From assembly GCA_963921275.4 (NCBI GenBank), contig OZ001293.3:5184001-5248000 (forward strand): a DNA stretch of 64,000 bases. The letters run 5' to 3'. The position numbers and the translations under genes are program-made. Below the pieces are notes generated by a model, which had not been told where the DNA came from, did not search any database, and saw only the letters and a list, made by a program, of their open reading frames with translations. Source of the stretch: an uncultured Hormoscilla sp. Lineage in GTDB: Bacteria; Cyanobacteriota; Cyanobacteriia; Cyanobacteriales; Desertifilaceae. Positions 1,642 to 64,000 of the stretch are shown here, piece after piece. Positions within the stretch are counted from its first letter, which is position 1. Each line of letters opens with the position of its first letter.

Positions 1642-2323
<682 letters not shown>

Positions 2324-2336
2324 TTCACCAATCTAA

Positions 2337-3345
2337 TTATGTGTAAAATGAGTTGGAAAAAGTGCGGCGTAGAAAATCGAAGCCCGTGCGGAAGAGACTC
2401 TTCTCGCGTCGTCCATGAGAGCGCAGACGAATCGGCGAACACTCGTGAGTCCAAAAACCTGCCTTCATTGCCCAGGTAAAAGCCAGGCTCAGCAAGGTCA
2501 GCAAGCGGCTTAAACGCTCCGAGTTGTCAAAGTGAAGACAGAAGCCACGGCTCTTCAAGGCTCCAAACATATTTTCAATGCCCCAAGGCTGGGCATAATC
2601 CCGCAGAGCAGTTTCAGGTCGAGCGTCGGTGATGAGGATAAGCAGCTCCCCCGACTCAGGCAGACGAGAGCCAATTACGTAGACCTTTCGTCCCCAAACC
2701 CAGCGGCGACCGGACAGAACACGAGATCCCCCGGCCGCAGAGAGTGAAACATCCGTTCTCCACGACGACGAGTCTTGCCGGACTTGGGGCTGCTCGCTAT
2801 GGCGGATGCGCAGACGGAAGGGAATCTTCGGGTCGAGCAGAAGATAGGAAAGCCATTCCTGGCCGACGAACTCCCGGTCAGCGGTTAGGCAGGCCACCTT
2901 CACTTCCGGAAACAGGGCCTCGAAGCGGTCGAACAAGTCCATGCGCTCGTTACTATTACTGTTGCCTTTCTTATCGAGCATCGTCCACAGCAAAGGGAAA
3001 GCGATGCCCTCGTGGACGACTCCCAGCATCAAAATGTTGAAGTGCGTTTGACCGAAAGACCAACAGGTGCGATCAAGGCTCAACGTCCAGGGGAATGTTG
3101 ATGAGGCTCACCACGAAACGGGCGATTTCTACCAGGTTGAATTCAAATTCACCGAAAAAACGTTGCCATTGCTTGTAATTCGAGGAGATTTGTACAGAGG
3201 TGGCTCCGACAGTGGCTAGTTCGGCTAGATTTACTGTCTTGGCTTGAAACAGCGCCATCAGGAACAGGCAAACAAAGTTTAATCGCGCTCCGTGCCAGTG
3301 AAGGTTCCGACGCAAGGTGTCCCGTAATCGGTTAAGCTCGTTCAT
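2337..3345 (-). pseudogene. IS4-family transposase, frameshifted
   Basis: 'MNELNRLRDTL..HWHGARL' N-terminus plus 'SLDRT.W.FG', 'LTADREFVG', 'WGIENMFGALKSRGF' in two frames (3073-3399, 2337-3083). Confidence 0.85.
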
Positions 3346-9077: not shown

Positions 9078-9397
9078 AGGGCATTATGCCAATGTGAACG
9101 CTGGAGGTATAATTATAGCGGCCCGGTTGGAGCTTTTTAAACTTGCCGGTGACTATTTGGACCTTTCCATCGGTGCAAGCAGGATTTATATCAACTATCA
9201 TTCCACCTCCTAGATAATATAATACATTTCCAGGTCGCGCAAGTATCTCTCCTAATCTTTTACCCTTTGCAAATTGTTAAAATGCTAGATATTGGTAATT
9301 TATAGGTGCGATTCCTTCTGGCGTAACTGGGCACCACGTTCAGGATAGTCAGGTGGGGTAAAACCCACAACTCAGGCGTTATGAGGGTTAGATTCCC

Positions 9398-11331
9398 GTG
9401 CGATGAGTTCCAGCCTAACGTAGTCATATACGGAACGCTGGCCTAGGAAACTAGGAACTCTGGTAATCATGGGGGTTTAATGGTCGGGGTTTAATGGTCG
9501 GGGTCGAGCTGGGAATCACTCCCCAACCCTCCAAGAGCGAAACCTGAAGAGCGACTGGAACCGCACACGGCTACTGGTTGGTAAGCTGTTGTCATCAGTA
9601 GGATTACTGGGGGTTACCCCCGTTGTCCCTTACCCTTTGAAATTTTACCCCTTATGGTCAATCCTATTGGACCGTTTAAGTACTGAGCTGCGGAAGGTTC
9701 GCGGAGGATAGTTCAGCAAACCATACTCGCCGCTCTTTACTAACATCTTCCCCATTCTGCTTTCCGCTTTTCGTAAGGGCTCTGAACTTTACCTGGCTAA
9801 GATTTGAATCCAAAATTCGTACTTTCGGAATTTCTCCCTAGTTCTGTGACATTAAGGTTACTTTTCCCAAGGGTGTCTTACCATATCCGTCCTACGTCTG
9901 CATATCCACAGGCATTACCCTGGGCGTTAGCTTCTTAGGACATCCTTCTTCTTCGTGGCTTGCGCTTTACATCTAACTTGTCCAAATGGGGACAGCTCAC
10001 GAGAGGTTACTTCGTTCCCTAGTATCATTTCACGATGCTTTTAGGTTCCTACTATACCCCGGGAGTTCTTTGAGTACGTTATTAGCCAGAGGCAAGAGCT
10101 AATACTAACTACCATTTCCCTTTTTGGGCAAGCGCATAAGCCTTCTTCCGCTGGTTCTGGTTAACGAGGTTTACATAGGTTCGCTTGTTCTAACCATTAG
10201 CATCTTTCCTAGCGGCGTCACCGGCTTAGGCTGCCAGTTATCCTACATTTAAGTCCTCGGGAGGCACCACGGCGATGTGGCTCCGTAGCACCTCCGACCG
10301 GTAGTACCCTCGACCCCCGTACCTGGGGAAAGGGAATTTAACCCCCATGATAACCAGAGTTATCTGGCTGATAGAGCCAGACCCGACTTTCACCTACTGG
10401 CTTATGCCGGAACGAATCGCACTCCCCCTCCCCAGGTACAGGGGTAACCGCGTGAGGTGCTGCGAAGTAACATCATCGTGGTGCCAAGCGAGGACTCAAA
10501 TGTAGGATAACTGGCAGCCCAAGCCGGTGACTCTGCTAGGAAAGATGTCCATGGCTAGAACAAGCGAACCTATGTAAACCTCGTTAAACCCAACCAGCGA
10601 AATAAGGCTTAATGCGCTGGAACAAAAGTTAATGCAGTTAGTGTTAATTAGGGAATTGGCTAACATTGTACCCAAATAACTGCCGGGGAAAAGTAGGGGC
10701 CTAAAGGCATCGTGAAATGATACCAGGGAACGAAGTAACCTCAGCGAGAGGAACGAAGTAACCCCCGTGGTGCTGTCCTCATTTGGACAAGTCAGATGTG
10801 CGTCCGCGTAGCGTGCGCGCAGCGCATAGCGCATGCCCATGAGGGGAGAGATGGCCCGAGAAGCTAATGCCTAGGCGGTGTCTGGAGCATGCCTTGGTGT
10901 CTGGAGCACACCGAGTCCTTCAGGACAAGAGTGTGCGGAAGACGCCAAAGTCCTTCAGGACAAGAGCATGCGGAAGACGCCGGTAATGCCTATGGATACG
11001 CAGACGCGGGTCGGTGATACTAGTAAACTATTGGTACAAGTAGCTCTAAAATGTCATAAGCCCATTTACAGCGTTAGCGAAAGCGAGTTGAGGATTGAGG
11101 AATGTTTAACTGGTAAAACGGAGTGTTAAATGGTGATACTAAAGGTTATCCGGCAGCTCCACTCACCAACCAGGAAAGGGGCGGACGTGCAAGTAGTAAG
11201 GGACAATGGGAGTAATCCCTAGTAATCCTACCCGTGAAAGGGGCCTAGTACCCAGTAGCCGTGTGCGGTGAAAGTCGCATGCACGGTTCCGAAAGGGAGG
11301 GTTGTCCCGCGAGGGACAGCTCGACCCCGAC
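9398..11331 (+). mobile_element. ORF-less group II intron Y nested in X, same orientation (own sequence 9398-9481 plus 10423-11331)
   Basis: GTGCGATGAGTT start directly after ATTCCC; canonical domain V AGCCGTGTGCGGTGAAAGTCGCATGCACGGTTC; ends CTCGACCCCGAC; EBS1 GGGAAT at 10651-10656. Confidence 0.88.
9497..10422 (-). mobile_element. ORF-less group II intron Z (926 nt) nested antisense inside Y
   Basis: Minus strand GTGCGATTCGTTCCGGCATAAG start at 10422, end CTCGACCCCGAC at 9497; domain V mutated; same 5' end recurs at 63956. Confidence 0.87.
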
Positions 11332-11974
11332 TCATGTACAGGGGTGACACTGGCCCACCGTTCCGGAAAAATCGGTGCTGTGGAGCAACATCATCACGGT
11401 GCTGAGCGAGGGCAAATGTAGGATAGCTTCCAGCCCTGAGGAGGCAACGCCGCTAGGAAAGATGTTCACGGTTAGAACAGGCAAACCCATGTAAGGGTCG
11501 TCATGTCAAATCGGTGAAATAAGGCTGAAACACCGGGCACAAAAGTGCATGCAGTTAGGACTAATGCTCTATAATCATTAGTTTTGTACACAAACAACTG
11601 CCAGCCTATAATGGGAACCTAAAGGCATCGTGAAATGACGTTTGGGAACGAAGTAACCCCTGTGGTTCTGTCTCTAGGGACCAGCCAGATGTGAAGCGCA
11701 TGACCACAGTCTTAAGGATGGCCTAAGAAGCAAATGCCTGGGATAATGCCTAGGATATGCAGACGTAGGTCGGTGATAGTAGGAAGTCTTGGGTGAAAGT
11801 AGTCCTAAAAATGCTATGAACCGGTAGGTGACTGCCAGGTATGTATGAAGACGTAAGTCTTGAAGGGACCAAATCTCATGAGGCAAGGGACAACGGGAGT
11901 AATCCCGAAGTTACCTACTTATGACAAGGGCCTACTACCCAGTAGCCGTATGCGAGGAAAGTCGCTCTTTAGGT

Positions 11975-12666
11975 TCCGAATGGGAGGGTTCCGAAGCGAT
12001 TCCCAGCTCGACCCCTAAAATATTTATTTCAGAAACTATAGTAACTCGGTATTTGATGAGTGGCACTCGCACCAAAAAGTTGCTGGCATCAGGGGTTAGG
12101 GAATAAACTGGAAAATAATACCAGGCGCACGAGGAGTAGCGAAGTGGCGCAAAACGAAGGGCTACGTCATAAACAAGATGCGCTCGCGCACTACTAATAA
12201 TTGCGCATTTTTGCTTGCTATAAAGCAGCGTTATCAGCTAAAATAGAAAAAGCAGACCGATGGCTAGCCCTGGCTGCTAACTTAAGCAAGCCGTTCATGA
12301 GTTGTGTAACTGGATTTTTATCCGAATGGGAGGGTTCCGAAGCGATTCCCAGCTCGACCCCTAACATATTTATTTCAGAAACTATAGTAACTCGGTATTT
12401 GATGAGTGGCACTCGCACCAAAAAGTTGCTGGCATCAGGGGTTAGGGAATAAACTGGAAAATAATACCAGGCGCACGAGGAGTAGCGAAGTGGCGCAAAA
12501 CGAAGGGCTACGTCATAAACAAGATGCGCTCGCGCACTACTAATAATTGCGCATTTTTGCTTGCTATAAAGCAGCGTTATCAGCTAAAATAGAAAAAGCA
12601 GACCGATGGCTAGCCCTGGCTGCTAACTTAAGCAAGCCGTTCATGAGTTGTGCAACTGGATTTTTA
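11975..12666. repeat. 346-bp direct tandem duplication
   Basis: 11975-12320 is repeated almost exactly at 12321-12666 (duplicated ORF-track entries at 12201 and 12547 are 346 bp apart). Confidence 0.93.
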
Positions 12667-12744
12667 GCTGAAAGCCTTACCCTGCAATTGTTTCAGCCAT
12701 TATTTTCACTCCAGAAAATTTGCACAAATGTATAGGACGCACTA
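12631..12744. mobile_element. About 115-bp MITE (related copy at 34160-34275, opposite orientation)
   Basis: End GCAAGCCGTTCATGAGTTGTGCAACTGG shared with the 34.2 kb copy; imperfect inverted other end. Confidence 0.6.
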
Positions 12745-12823: not shown

Positions 12824-13657
<834 letters not shown>

Positions 13658-27863: not shown

Positions 27864-28125
27864 GTGCGATTCGTTCTAGCCTAACGTGGTCAAACACGGA
27901 ACGCTAGCCCGGTTTCATTAGCCGGGAACTCTGACCGCATGGGGGTTAAATTCCCCTCCCCCCAGGTACGGGGGTGACACCGGTCCTCGGTGCTACGAAG
28001 CGACATCATCGTGGTGCTAAGCGAGGACTCAAATGTAGGATAACTGGCAGCCTAAGCCGGTGACGCCGCTAGGAAAGATATCCAAGGTTAGAGCAGGCAA
28101 ACATGTGCAAGCCTCGTTATAAGGA
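27864..28125 (+). mobile_element. 5' part of a group II intron of the ORF-less-family type inserted antisense into the ORF of intron T, truncated by IS5
   Basis: GTGCGATTCGTTCTAGCCTAACGTGG start; domain I motifs shared with families A and Y. Confidence 0.82.
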
Positions 28126-28489
28126 ACCACAGGATTTCATCTTACCCCTGGCCAAGCCCACGACGGGAAAGGCGCTGACGTGCTATTGGATAAAATCGGT
28201 GAGATTGGCGCGCTGCTTGCAGATAAAGCCTATGATGCGGAACAACGTGTGCTCGAGCGCCTGAAAGAGGCGGATTGGATGGCTGTCATTCCTCCAAAAA
28301 GTAACCGCACAGAACACAGAGAATACGATGAAGAAATGTACAAGTGGCGGCATCTAATTGAAAATCTATTCCAAAAACTCAAGCAATACAGGGCTCTGGC
28401 GACACGCTACGATAAAACCGCTCGCAATTTCTTGGGTGCCATCTACCTCGCGGCAGCTGTAATATGGCTTAATTGATGACACGCCCTAG
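28126..28489 (+). pseudogene. IS5-family transposase 3' half
   Basis: 'LLADKAYD', 'VIPPKSNR', 'YKWRHLIENLFQKLKQYRALATRYDK'. Confidence 0.85.
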
Positions 28490-28714
28490 CAAATGAAACC
28501 AGACCAGACTTTCACCGTCACCGGTTTACGCCTGAACGAATCGCACCCGGACAACCTATATCCTTAACCGAGAAGTATTGCCAGCGCTCGTTAATCCGAT
28601 TTTACTCGATTGGATCTAAGCCGCAAATGTCTGACTAATACCATCGTCATGGGTGATCGGAAAGAATGAAACAGCCCTGGTTTCTGGATGCTCAGTTTAT
28701 TTATACCCGGCTAC

Positions 28715-56720: not shown

Positions 56721-57172
56721 TACCTGATAATGAACTTTTACTATACTATGTGGCTCTTCGTGAAATGGTATGCGTTCATTGCCATCGGAATAGCCTAAAA
56801 CACTTGCTTCGTCTAGGGTTGAGGTTGTCGCCGCGCGGGAGCGACTGATCTGCAAGGCACAGGCGTTGGAACCATTATTGGTAAAGGGTTTCAGGCGCAT
56901 TAGCTATGATTTTAGCATACTAGATTGGGAAGAGCCTACTATGTATTAGGGGTCGAGCTGGGAATCGCTTCGGAACCCTCCCATTCGGAACCGGACTTGC
57001 GACTTTCACCGCATCCGGCTACTGGGTAGTAGGTTCTTTGTCAATGGTAGGTAACTTTTGGATTACTCCCGTTGTCCCTTGTCCCATGCGATTTGGCTCC
57101 TTTCCTGGTTGGTGAGTGGCGCTGCCGGATAACCTTTAGTGTCACCATTGTCATGTCCGTTTTACCAGTAAT

Positions 57173-58693
57173 ATTAAACTAAGTAAGGGTGTCACCACTC
57201 CTACTCGTCTTCAGAACCGGACTTGAGACTTTCACCTCATCCGGCTCCTCAGTAACGTCATCCTTGTCATGGATACGGCTATTACTACCATCACTGGCAG
57301 TTTTAGTATCGTGGCAATGTTTGTGCAGCAACTGTAGATTGGGATACCAGTCCTTGCCCCCTTTGGATAGGGGTAGGATGTGGTCTACTTCCCATTTGTC
57401 GCCGTCCCTAAACGTTAGTCCGCATTGTTCACATTTGCCCTTTTGTCTTTTGAGCAGGTTCACGACCCTTGTGCTCAACTCTGGGCTCTTACCTAATCTT
57501 ATGCTCCAATATGGTAGGTTACCGTCGTATGGGCTAGCTGTCCCTTTTACCTTTATTTGTCTGATTATCTCAGTTTCGGCGTGTTTGGTTAGCGTCACCT
57601 CTGTGCTTTTGTCTGTCTTACCTCTGAAACACCATTTAACTTCCTGGTTTACAGACCAGTATTTACTAGCTATCCAGTGGCTTGACTTGTTGGGATGCCT
57701 TCTCTTTGCCCATTGCCATAGTATCTCCCATAAGTATTTATCCATGTTGGCGTAAGTTTCCTTACTTACCACCGTTCTGAAGTAGTTGGCCCATCCCCGT
57801 ATTACCGGGTTTAGCCTGCTAATCAGGGCTGCTTGTGGTGCCGTTTTATGGCTGGTTACGATTTGCGCTAATCGTTCTTTATGCTTCCCTATAGATTTCT
57901 TGCTGGGCTTGACTATGGTTTTGAAGCCTAGGGGGGATTTTACCAGTAACCTTTGGAGTCTGCGAACCATCCGCTCGTTGCCTTCCAGTGCCGCTCTGTA
58001 AATTCGTTTTTGCAACTTAAAGACTACCCGCTCCAGCCGAGGCCAAGGAATATCCTTCCATTCATTCATCGATTCTGAAACCGTGCTCATGACGTATGCA
58101 TTGCTACTTACAACTTCACAATTGACGTTACCGTGAGGGCGTCAGCGTATCCTATCCATTACAGACAGGCGTTTGCTTCTCCACGAAATCTCTCCCAAGT
58201 ATGACCTGCCTGATGAAAGCAGATGTTGCGCCTGTGGTGGCTACTCTACCTATCGACCAGTGGTAGAGAGTGCATACCTGGGTTACTTCGTTCCTCTAGA
58301 TGATTGGTTGTAGTTTTAGGTGGACTCTATATGCCGGGTTTATTGTCAGTGCTTATTGGTCGGTTAGGGAACCGCCAATGACCATTATCCTTTCCCTTTT
58401 GGGTCAGCGTGTAAGCCTTTCCGCTGGTTGATGTGACGACACTTATGAGTTTTCGCTTTCGCTCACCATGACCACTTGCTTGGCGATCACCGATTTAGGC
58501 TACCAGTCAGTGCGCCTTTTAACCCCGCTTTACGGATTGATGCCATCGCTACCGTAGGGGTTACGCTTTCACTCCTGCACCTGGAGGGGTGGGCTTTCAC
58601 CACCATCATCTAAAAGTTGTCAGGGCTAATGGAACCCTGAGTGGTCCAAATTTTTGACTTGTGTCAAGTTATTTTACACTAAACGAATCGCAC
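57173..58693 (-). mobile_element. Group II intron U (1521 nt) nested in domain IV of the outer intron
   Basis: GTGCGATTCGTT at 58693, domain V GAGCCGGATGAGGTGAAAGTCTCAAGTCCGGTTC, end GTTTAAT at 57173. Confidence 0.9.
57179..58090 (-). CDS. Group II intron-encoded protein with in-frame deletion of the RT core (N-terminal RT0 part + maturase X + HNH)
   Basis: 'W..LERVVFKLQKRIYRA..LQRLLVKS' joined directly to 'KPSKKSI..LNPVIRGWANYF..WAKRRHP' and HNH; no YADD. Confidence 0.88.
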   Translation of the reverse strand: MSTVSESMNEWKDIPWPRLERVVFKLQKRIYRAALEGNERMVRRLQRLLVKSPLGFKTIVKPSKKSIGKHKERLAQIVTSHKTAPQAALISRLNPVIRGWANYFRTVVSKETYANMDKYLWEILWQWAKRRHPNKSSHWIASKYWSVNQEVKWCFRGKTDKSTEVTLTKHAETEIIRQIKVKGTASPYDGNLPYWSIRLGKSPELSTRVVNLLKRQKGKCEQCGLTFRDGDKWEVDHILPLSKGGKDWYPNLQLLHKHCHDTKTASDGSNSRIHDKDDVTEEPDEVKVSSPVLKTSRSGDTLT

Positions 58694-58915
58694 CTATACC
58701 TCATCACGGACTAGCTTTTGCTATGGTGCCAGTGAAGGGTTCATAACATGTTTAGAGTTACAGTTTCAACCTGAGACTTCCTACTATCACCGACCCACGT
58801 CGGCGTATCCTGGGCATTACCCCAGGCATTTGCTTCTTGGGGGCAGGCTTGGGCTCCCACTCGTGGCTTGCGCTTCACATCTCACTGGTCCTGACGGACA
58901 GCTCACGAGGGGTTC

Positions 58916-59199
58916 CAGCGCATTAAGCCTTATTTCGCTGGTTGGGTTTAACGAGGTTTACATAGGTTCGCCTGTTCTAGCCATGGACATCATCGAGCGC
59001 GTCCTCACCGGTAAGGGCTACCAGTTATCCTACATTTGAGTTCTCGCTTAGCACCACGACGATGTTATTTCGCAGCACCTCCAACCGGTGTTACCCCCGT
59101 ACCTGGGGAGGGGGAATTAAACCCCCATGATTACCAGAGTTCCTAGTTTCCTAGGCCAGCGTTCCGTATATGACTACGTTAGGCTGGAACTCATCGCAC
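58916..59199 (-). mobile_element. 5' part of a second copy of intron family Y nested in W
   Basis: Start GTGCGATGAGTTCCAGCCTAACGTAG identical to 9398; again directly after ATTCCC in host domain I. Confidence 0.85.
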
Positions 59200-59283
59200 G
59201 GGAATTTAACCCCCATGAATACCAGAGTTCCTAATTTCCTAGGCTAGCGTTCCGTGTTTGACCAGGTTAGGCTAGAACGAATA

Positions 59284-60117
<834 letters not shown>

Positions 60118-63955: not shown

Positions 63956-64000
63956 GTGCGATTCGTTCCGGCATAAGCCAGTAGGTGAAAGTCGGGTCTG
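63956..64000 (+). mobile_element. 5' end of another family Z group II intron (runs off the window)
   Basis: 45 nt identical to the reverse complement of 10378-10422; 5' flank GAGGTA pairs with Z EBS1 TGCCTC (one G-U). Confidence 0.88.

Follow-up and report, generated by a model that had tools for sequence, protein, structure and literature searches.

The 64-kb stretch of contig OZ001293.3 from an uncultured Hormoscilla sp. analysed here (the window, to which all intron counts refer) is bacterial DNA of 47.8% G+C, with genes that include a Crp-like, a LytR-like and a transposase gene, and with seven group II intron domain V/VI units detected by Rfam. Self-comparison of the window and reading of the junctions delimit a set of introns without an open reading frame (ORF), namely X, Y, Z, V and the nearly identical A, B and C of one further family, as well as two ORF-bearing introns, U and T. 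The element under study is a block at 11108-11260 in intron Y, just upstream of domain V, which recurs among these ORF-less families at the place where the ORF of the intron-encoded protein (IEP) would be. This block is the distal part and 3′ two-thirds of domain IV (DIV) and not a separate insert, and Y, V and A/B/C share one such DIV by descent, in line with the single lineage proposed in a first-pass annotation of this DNA.

The sharing of the block by divergent ORF-less families, which that annotation had read off the letters, is recovered by blastn of 11108-11260 within the window: full-length copies lie in V, A, B and C and partial ones in X and Z, those of B and C, both of the A family, being two additional to the copies noted before. 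The 3′ motif AGGGACAAYGGGAGTAATCC, with up to three mismatches allowed, has seven matches in the window against 0.00 expected (0/100 shuffles), and the 5′ motif CTAAAGGTTATCYGGCAGC five against 0.05 expected. Every full copy (5/5) ends at a domain V/VI detected by RF00029, and the block lies, as had been supposed, in domain IV, between the conserved domain III region and domains V/VI. The further claim that it is present in all ORF-less families is true of the 3′ half (5/5) but not of the 5′ half, because the latter occurs in Y, V and A/B/C (3/5) and is absent from X and Z. Likewise, its stated absence from T and U applies to the two motifs, neither of which is found inside those introns, but not to the last ~34 nt, which ORF-bearing introns also possess.

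The placement of the block within DIV depends on the basal helix that closes this domain, which could be located because the ORF-less introns were compared with ORF-bearing relatives from plasmids: L007 of Leptolyngbya boryana, L008 of Nostoc and L010-L012 of Acaryochloris. The helix lies at the homologous place in every ORF-less family and shows compensatory changes; of its seven base pairs, four have compensatory double changes among four distinct families, and 96.4% of the cells in the corresponding alignment (A2) are paired. For the entire DIV structure (15 pairs) the observed covariation is reached by 0/500 shuffles, and pairing drops from 95.0% to 30-53% on sliding the partner, although, with three to five distinct sequences, the statistics of covariation carry little weight outside the basal helix. 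The ORF of U, L007, L008 and L010 fills the same interval between the strands of this helix, an interval for which the ORF-less copies have 160-310 nt, and which has the two marks of a group II domain IV, a position between domains III and V and closure by its own basal helix a few nucleotides ahead of domain V. The terminal CCTACTACCCAGT, which had been counted as part of a special module, is the 3′ strand of this helix followed by J4/5 and the first base of domain V, and the helix itself is also found in ORF-bearing U, T, L007, L008 and L010. A pairing of the ends of the module, ACUGG...CCAGU, was considered as the closing stem of DIV and rejected, as the covarying helix lies further out and CCAG is J4/5. 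With Rfam release 15 (gathering score or E ≤ 1), only domain V/VI models match and none does so over 11108-11253, which agrees with the earlier statement that no known motif could be named for the block.

The 3′ half is the part of the block that extends through all five families, and its 5′ boundary (AAGGRR..AAAU) is identical in 5/5 of them. It contains the invariant AAGGGACAA (11198-11206 in Y), a GNRA hairpin, GGGA-GUAA-UCCC (11208-11219 in Y), and then CCUAC and UGA(C)AA. This GNRA-capped hairpin, spotted already in the first pass, is real: its loop is GUAA in four families and GCAA in one, and three of its five pairs change on both sides, including an A-U to G-C change in Z. The last 34 nt before domain V can be aligned between the five families without an ORF and the ORF-bearing U, T, L007 and L008, with a summed score of -1 versus -133.5 +/- 18.7 in shuffles (0/1000), and share a core, (A/U/G)UGACAA, 13-14 nt ahead of AG and domain V; the UGACAA motif beside the basal helix is likewise present in ORF-bearing U, T, L007, L008 and L010. 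In L010 from Acaryochloris the shared UGAUGACAACAGCC falls 16 nt past the stop codon, and the motif is therefore maintained at the RNA level, within the stem region of DIV, rather than for a protein product. Just inside the basal helix, CUGAUGACAACAGC is found in Z (9588-9601, minus strand), in L007 (2985-3000, where it is coding) and in the Acaryochloris introns (2771-2790 in L010), where it follows the stop codon; introns of this class thus seem to share it as a DIV element at the level of RNA. In the 45 nt upstream of UGACAA there is no similarity to the ORF-bearing introns (51 vs 63.7 in shuffles, 492/500), nhmmer profiles of each module half have no match in U, T, L007, L008 or L009, and a profile of the L007/L010 DIV 5′ region has no match in the ORF-less DIVs.

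The 5′ half is a hairpin of three helices, which in Y are Sa (11110-11114/11169-11173), Sb (11131-11136/11163-11168) and Sc (11151-11154/11158-11161), with an invariant 12-nt single strand, ACUAAAGGUUAU, between Sb and Sc; 94.8% of its cells pair (alignment A3), versus 15-47% with the partner slid. Its identity between Y, V and C is 84-87%, about the level of domain V (85-97%), the other compared blocks being domain I (70-84%), the stretch directly 5′ of the module (40-57%) and the 3′ half (66-72%). At the exact site where Y has ACUG, 57 nt and CCAGG, intron X has ACUG joined directly to CCAGG, so that the hairpin has been either inserted or deleted cleanly, at the foot of its stem; in X the junction is followed by a different small GNRA hairpin, GAAGAC-GUAA-GUCUUG. 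The 5′ distal DIV of Z amounts to ~135 nt in which similarity to the hairpin is not detectable, and a diverged hairpin there, hinted at by a MAFFT alignment, was rejected with scores equal to those of shuffles. Rfam detects domain V/VI in all five hairpin-bearing copies (42.9-47.9 bits); in X and Z, which are without the hairpin, it detects none even at E ≤ 1, their domain V being decayed. A tertiary pairing of the hairpin loop GUUAUCC with GGAUAAC of domain I was also rejected, as it stands at chance level (179/300 and 141/300 shuffles). When an exact 19-mer of the 5′ half was compared with 185,579 species genomes, six stretches matched, of which none, at the blastn setting used, aligns with Y beyond the motif; as the 19-mer was found in no related sequence there, the element is not widespread.

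Introns of the window, copies and parts of the block, and basal helices of domain IV (DIV); 5′ and 3′ strands of each helix are separated by "with"
Feature	Position	Strand	Remarks
Intron A	13657-12824	minus	ORF-less; DIV 13107-12905
Intron B	2323-1642	minus	ORF-less, A family; internal deletion removes domains II/III and DIV 5′ strand
Intron C	60117-59284	minus	ORF-less, A family; DIV 59567-59365
Intron Y	9398-9481 plus 10423-11331	plus	ORF-less; DIV 11018-11250
Intron X	9306-9397 plus 11332-12018	plus	ORF-less; DIV 11777-11937
Intron Z	10422-9497	minus	ORF-less; DIV 9579-9883
Intron V	59199-56946	minus	ORF-less; DIV interrupted by U
Intron U	58693-57173	minus	ORF-bearing, within V; other RNA type than the ORF-less introns
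Intron T	28546-27474	minus	ORF-bearing; other RNA type than the ORF-less introns
5′ half of module in Y	11108-11173	plus	three-helix hairpin
3′ half of module in Y	11174-11244	plus	found in 5/5 families
J4/5 (CCCAG), then domains V-VI of Y	11251-11331	plus	RF00029 match 11254-11331, 47.9 bits
Module copy in V	57017-57169	minus	full length, 79%; U sits 3 nt 5′ of module
Module copy in A	12895-13046	minus	full length, 77%
Module copy in C	59355-59506	minus	full length, 77%; near-identical to A
Module copy in B	1713-1861	minus	full length, 77%
Partial copy in X	11885-11947	plus	3′ half only, 83%
Partial copy in Z	9569-9633	minus	3′ half only, 77%
Basal helix Y	11018-11023, 11245-11250	plus	UACUAG with CUAGUA
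Basal helix X, V			UAGUAGG with CCUACUA
Basal helix A, C			AAGUAGG with CCUACUU
Basal helix Z			UGGUAAG with CUUACCA
Basal helix U			CGGUAACGUCA with UGACGUUACUG; 11 bp; 1/1000 shuffles reach
Basal helix L008			CGAUGAAUUGG with CCGAUUCAUUG; 11 bp; 2/1000 shuffles reach
Basal helix L007 / L010			CGAUAGUACGG with CCG(G/U)A(C/U)UGUUG

The introns of the window are in part nested. Between 9306 and 12018 there are three, Z in Y in X: Y enters X after GGGTTAGATTCCC and Z, on the opposite strand, enters Y after GGGGGTTTAAT, both at the same structural place near the 5′ end of domain I; at its 3′ junction Z is accompanied by 14 nt duplicated in tandem (9482-9495). The domain II/III region of Y (10790-10985) has lineage-specific insertions including a direct repeat of ~35 nt (GTCCTTCAGGACAAGAG..GCGGAAGACGCC, twice), and a tandem duplication at ~11979-12670, whose period is 346 nt, repeats the domain VI end and 3′ flank of X, the domain VI end CTCGACCCCTAA being found at 12007-12018 and again at 12353-12364. 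In a second nested cluster (56946-60117), C is succeeded by 84 nt from the 5′ end of another intron (59283-59200), and V has inserted into this fragment after AAATTCCC, with U lying in domain IV of V between GATGAGGTATAG and ATTACTGG. Introns A, B and C (5′ ends at 13657, 2323 and 60117) were inserted after GTGCA, GTGAA and GTGCA, respectively, with TA following each, and this shared context suggests retrohoming to a short common target; their 3′ ends are CCCTAC in A and CCCGAC in B and C. The 5′ end of a further intron (GTGCGAT...) is seen at 63956-64000 on the plus strand, right before the end of the window.

The intron ORFs within the window are those of U and T, both of which are defective. 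The ORF of U (57179-58090, minus strand) codes for 303 amino acids with RVT_N (profile positions 1-44), maturase (GIIM) and HNH domains, the whole reverse transcriptase (RT) domain having gone by an in-frame internal deletion after "LLVKS"; the protein might still work as a maturase-only protein. Full-length relatives of the U IEP number at least 120 in public data, and the best among the matches listed is 76% identical to U. Intron T is broken, with its 5′ end and the last ~125 IEP codons remaining, such that its IEP is truncated to the C-terminal part; the space between these two remnants is taken up by a 5′ fragment, in inverted orientation, from an ORF-less intron (~27864-28119, plus strand) and by another stretch at ~28150-28500.

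The best explanation of these features, which can be held with somewhat better than even confidence, is that the block represents the distal and 3′ DIV (the DIVb position, the usual site of the ORF) of a single ORF-less lineage of group IIB-like introns, including a putative platform for an IEP acting in trans. This lineage would have lost its ORF once and would then have diverged into families with different targets and multiplied in the genome, partly by members inserting into one another, and DIV would later have diversified too, in its distal 5′ part. The small hairpins may serve to make a compact DIV by bridging the space from which the ORF was lost, and together with the retained start-codon region (RAGUAG...AAUG) they could offer a platform for an IEP, a reverse transcriptase/maturase, made elsewhere in the genome, which, once bound there, would splice and mobilise the ORF-less introns in trans. 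Dependence on a trans-acting IEP is likely, because an intact IEP is missing from the window and reliance of ORF-less bacterial introns on the IEPs of related introns is known, as described in accounts of several such systems (PMC4424553; PMC2882425; PMC4649490). The 5′ hairpin may be part of the protein platform.

Several observations weigh against this explanation. The start-codon remnant (RAGUAG...AAUG) lies 20-70 nt 5′ of the module, and it is to that place, not to the module, that the canonical IEP anchor DIVa corresponds. U and T belong to an RNA lineage different from that of the ORF-less family, whose domains V/VI resemble L007 of Leptolyngbya; a distant blastn of Y against plasmids matches nothing but domain V in six records and domain I in one. 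Among the three distinct versions of the hairpin one pair alone, in Sb, is compensatory (A-U to G-C), and the shuffle control of its covariation is uninformative (367/500). Its high identity may reflect recent common ancestry or gene conversion and not selection, and V and B hold it despite large deletions elsewhere. Thermodynamically, the block in Y, V and C has no advantage over shuffled sequence (z = -0.52 to +0.82), and RNAalifold on the module gives -12.27 kcal/mol with a covariation term of -0.16; the DIV of X folds at z = -2.4. Some covariation exists, the lack of which would have spoken against the first-pass proposal; the idea of a dedicated RNA element is not supported, given a 3′ half conserved at the intron average, folding at the level of shuffles and a lone compensatory pair in the 5′ hairpin.

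These same points can be read in terms of neutrality, and it is possible, if only tentatively so, that the block is a relic of DIV left over after the loss of the ORF, which looks conserved through recent divergence or sequence exchange and has no function beyond the basal helix. Not just the average identity of the 3′ half and the scant covariation of the hairpin but also the fate of the 5′ part, which has been replaced or lost in X and Z and yet retained in the defective B and V, are consistent with such a relic. What it accommodates less readily is that the hairpin, at 84-87% identity, stands as a conserved island between stretches of 40-57% and 66-72%, that AAGGGACAA is invariant in five families with the GNRA pairing kept through two-sided changes in 3/5 pairs, and that both hairpin-less copies are those with a decayed domain V.

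An origin of the distal DIV from the ORF itself is possible, and an equally tentative reading that builds on it takes the block for decayed coding sequence, with N- and C-terminal remnants of the IEP ORF flanking one large deletion, as in the TeI3 introns of Thermosynechococcus elongatus. The last 34 nt do have an aligning counterpart at this place in U, T, L007 and L008, which is coding in U, T and L007, and CTGATGACAACAGC is, by eye, common to Z and L007. A few further resemblances, all by eye and not significant, point the same way: one frame reads KSHEARDNGSNP in X, which may be compared with the IEP tails KSARDGS and TASDGSNS (KSHEARDNGS beside KSARDGS), and the AACTGG that opens the module agrees with the codons for (L/I)NW near the N-terminus of the IEP. 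When C is compared with L007, the best local match also falls at the start of the ORF, with a score of 35 vs 28.8 +/- 3.5 in shuffles (31/500), which is not significant. Against this stand the systematic searches. From 120 U-related IEPs, hidden Markov models (HMMs) were built for the N-terminus, the C-terminus and the full length; run on the three forward frames of DIV from C, Y, V, X and Z, in which stops were rendered as X, they gave best scores of -0.0, 0.2 and -2.6 bits, all within shuffled controls, versus 423.7 bits for the positive control U; the decayed IEP C-terminus that would have spoken against the first-pass proposal did not rise above shuffles in these translated searches. Pairwise Smith-Waterman comparison with U and T, as a test for IEP remnants, was negative or marginal, and colinear alignment with free deletions was marginal as well, 6 to 123 of 200 shuffles reaching the observed score. 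The DNA profiles of the module halves and of the L007/L010 DIV 5′ region were negative, as noted above, the 45 nt upstream of UGACAA are dissimilar, and the location of UGAUGACAACAGCC after the stop codon in L010 indicates a motif conserved as RNA.

The clean junction in X lends itself to yet another reading, an unlikely one, whereby the 65-nt hairpin was inserted later into DIV, bounded exactly by the CUGG/CCAG stem, and would give the lineage a new property, for instance recruitment of a heterologous U-type IEP or maturase-only protein, or a substitute for the maturase in folding. The profile searches indeed show no similarity of the hairpin to IEP sequences or to the DIV of ORF-bearing relatives, it is conserved at the level of domain V, and U, with RVT_N, maturase and HNH but without RT, lies 3 nt from it in V. 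However, X may simply have deleted the hairpin, the three distinct sequences give no statistical support for selection on it, the 19-mer is absent from related sequences in the genomes searched, and the complementarity between its loop and domain I is that of chance. A more specific version, quite improbable, is that the acquired hairpin with ACUAAAGGUUAU would let the ORF-less lineage, with every trace of its own ORF gone, hijack a heterologous IEP or maturase-only protein, such as that of U, with copies that lose the hairpin then decaying; if true, it would represent a new kind of IEP-recruitment element outside DIVa. Finally, that the block encodes a small peptide of ~30 amino acids (MV(I/T)LKVI...RD.GSNP) is scarcely credible: an ATG-started frame of 30-38 codons is open in three families (Y, V and A/C) and C has a stop-free frame of 57 codons, but a hand count over aligned codons gives ~16 non-synonymous to 7 synonymous differences between families, which is near neutral, the frame start is absent from X and Z, there is no conserved ribosome-binding site, no predicted protein shares words with the peptide, and the changes retained are those that compensate at the RNA level.

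Returning to the DIV of a single ORF-less lineage as the preferred explanation, its wider interest lies in the fact that still-mobile ORF-less group II introns show selfish ribozymes in the process of becoming dependent on shared, trans-acting protein machinery, a step often invoked for the origin of spliceosomal introns. Bacterial cases of mobile ORF-less introns have been described as rare in one account of them (PMC4424553). If the hairpin were a protein anchor, an IEP-recognition element outside the classical DIVa would thereby be mapped.

A comparison with known systems may be begun with DIVa. If the block is set beside it, the background is that DIVa serves mobile group II introns as the site to which the IEP binds with high affinity, with Ll.LtrB as the paradigm, and holds the ribosome-binding site and the start codon. 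Its role as an IEP anchor at the start codon is also stated in the account of the T. elongatus introns (PMC2882425). The module resembles DIVa in being a structured sub-domain of DIV beside the ORF position, such as ORF-less introns dependent on a trans-acting IEP would be expected to retain; unlike DIVa, it has no conserved Shine-Dalgarno sequence or AUG aligning with ORF starts, and the presence of the start-codon remnant 5′ of it indicates that the module is not the DIVa equivalent. Nesting, too, has its precedents: Dai and Zimmerly reportedly described nested group II introns of Methanosarcina acetivorans in 2003. In the Trichodesmium twintron, introns home into related introns, which gives nested arrays, and the ORF-less ones are thought to rely on maturases in trans (PMC4649490). 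The Methanosarcina and Trichodesmium reports are not known to describe a DIV block common to ORF-less families, and a literature search pairing Hormoscilla with group II intron found no paper. The ORF-less intron L009 on a plasmid of Chondrocystis sp. NIES-4102 (2253-3079) has a similar 5′ end (GTGCGA) and domain V/VI (52.5 bits) and a DIV dissimilar to the module, such that ORF-less introns of this class do not possess the module in general.

The nearest parallel is with TeI3 of T. elongatus, in which 17 ORF-less introns are described as forming four families that share one DIV deletion, with IEPs in trans and twintrons in DIV (PMC2882425). The idea of an ORF-less lineage with a common DIV, several families and an IEP in trans, put forward in the first pass, had therefore already been reported there, and the present finding mostly repeats this known pattern. 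There are differences of detail. TeI3 retains remnants of both ends of its ORF, N- and C-terminal, which are said to be "clearly discernible" (PMC2882425), whereas here none is detectable by profile searches and the match to ORF-bearing introns comes down to the last 34 nt, the shared motif of which is non-coding in L010. The parent ORF-bearing family of TeI3 is described from the same genome (PMC2882425), whereas in the window the ORF-bearing introns come from another RNA lineage and their IEPs are broken. As for shared break-points of the TeI3 type, the 3′ block begins at a common 5′ edge in 5/5 families, and the content on the 5′ side is common only to Y, V and A/B/C; the families thus differ, unlike those of TeI3, in the distal 5′ DIV, which is the hairpin in Y, V and A and other sequence in X and Z. 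The V/U pair, an ORF-bearing intron inside an ORF-less DIV, is the opposite of the arrangement in the T. elongatus twintrons, and the mobility of TeI3 has been shown experimentally (PMC2882425), whereas that of the introns in the window is putative. Nevertheless, the two systems have in common their cyanobacterial host, ORF-less families with different targets, one inherited DIV architecture from which the ORF is missing at DIVb, insertion into related introns, including their DIV, to form twintrons, and an IEP proposed to act in trans (PMC2882425). The window may thus be seen as adding a second cyanobacterial system of this type, with nested copies and with a DIV in whose distal part remnants of the ORF are no longer seen.

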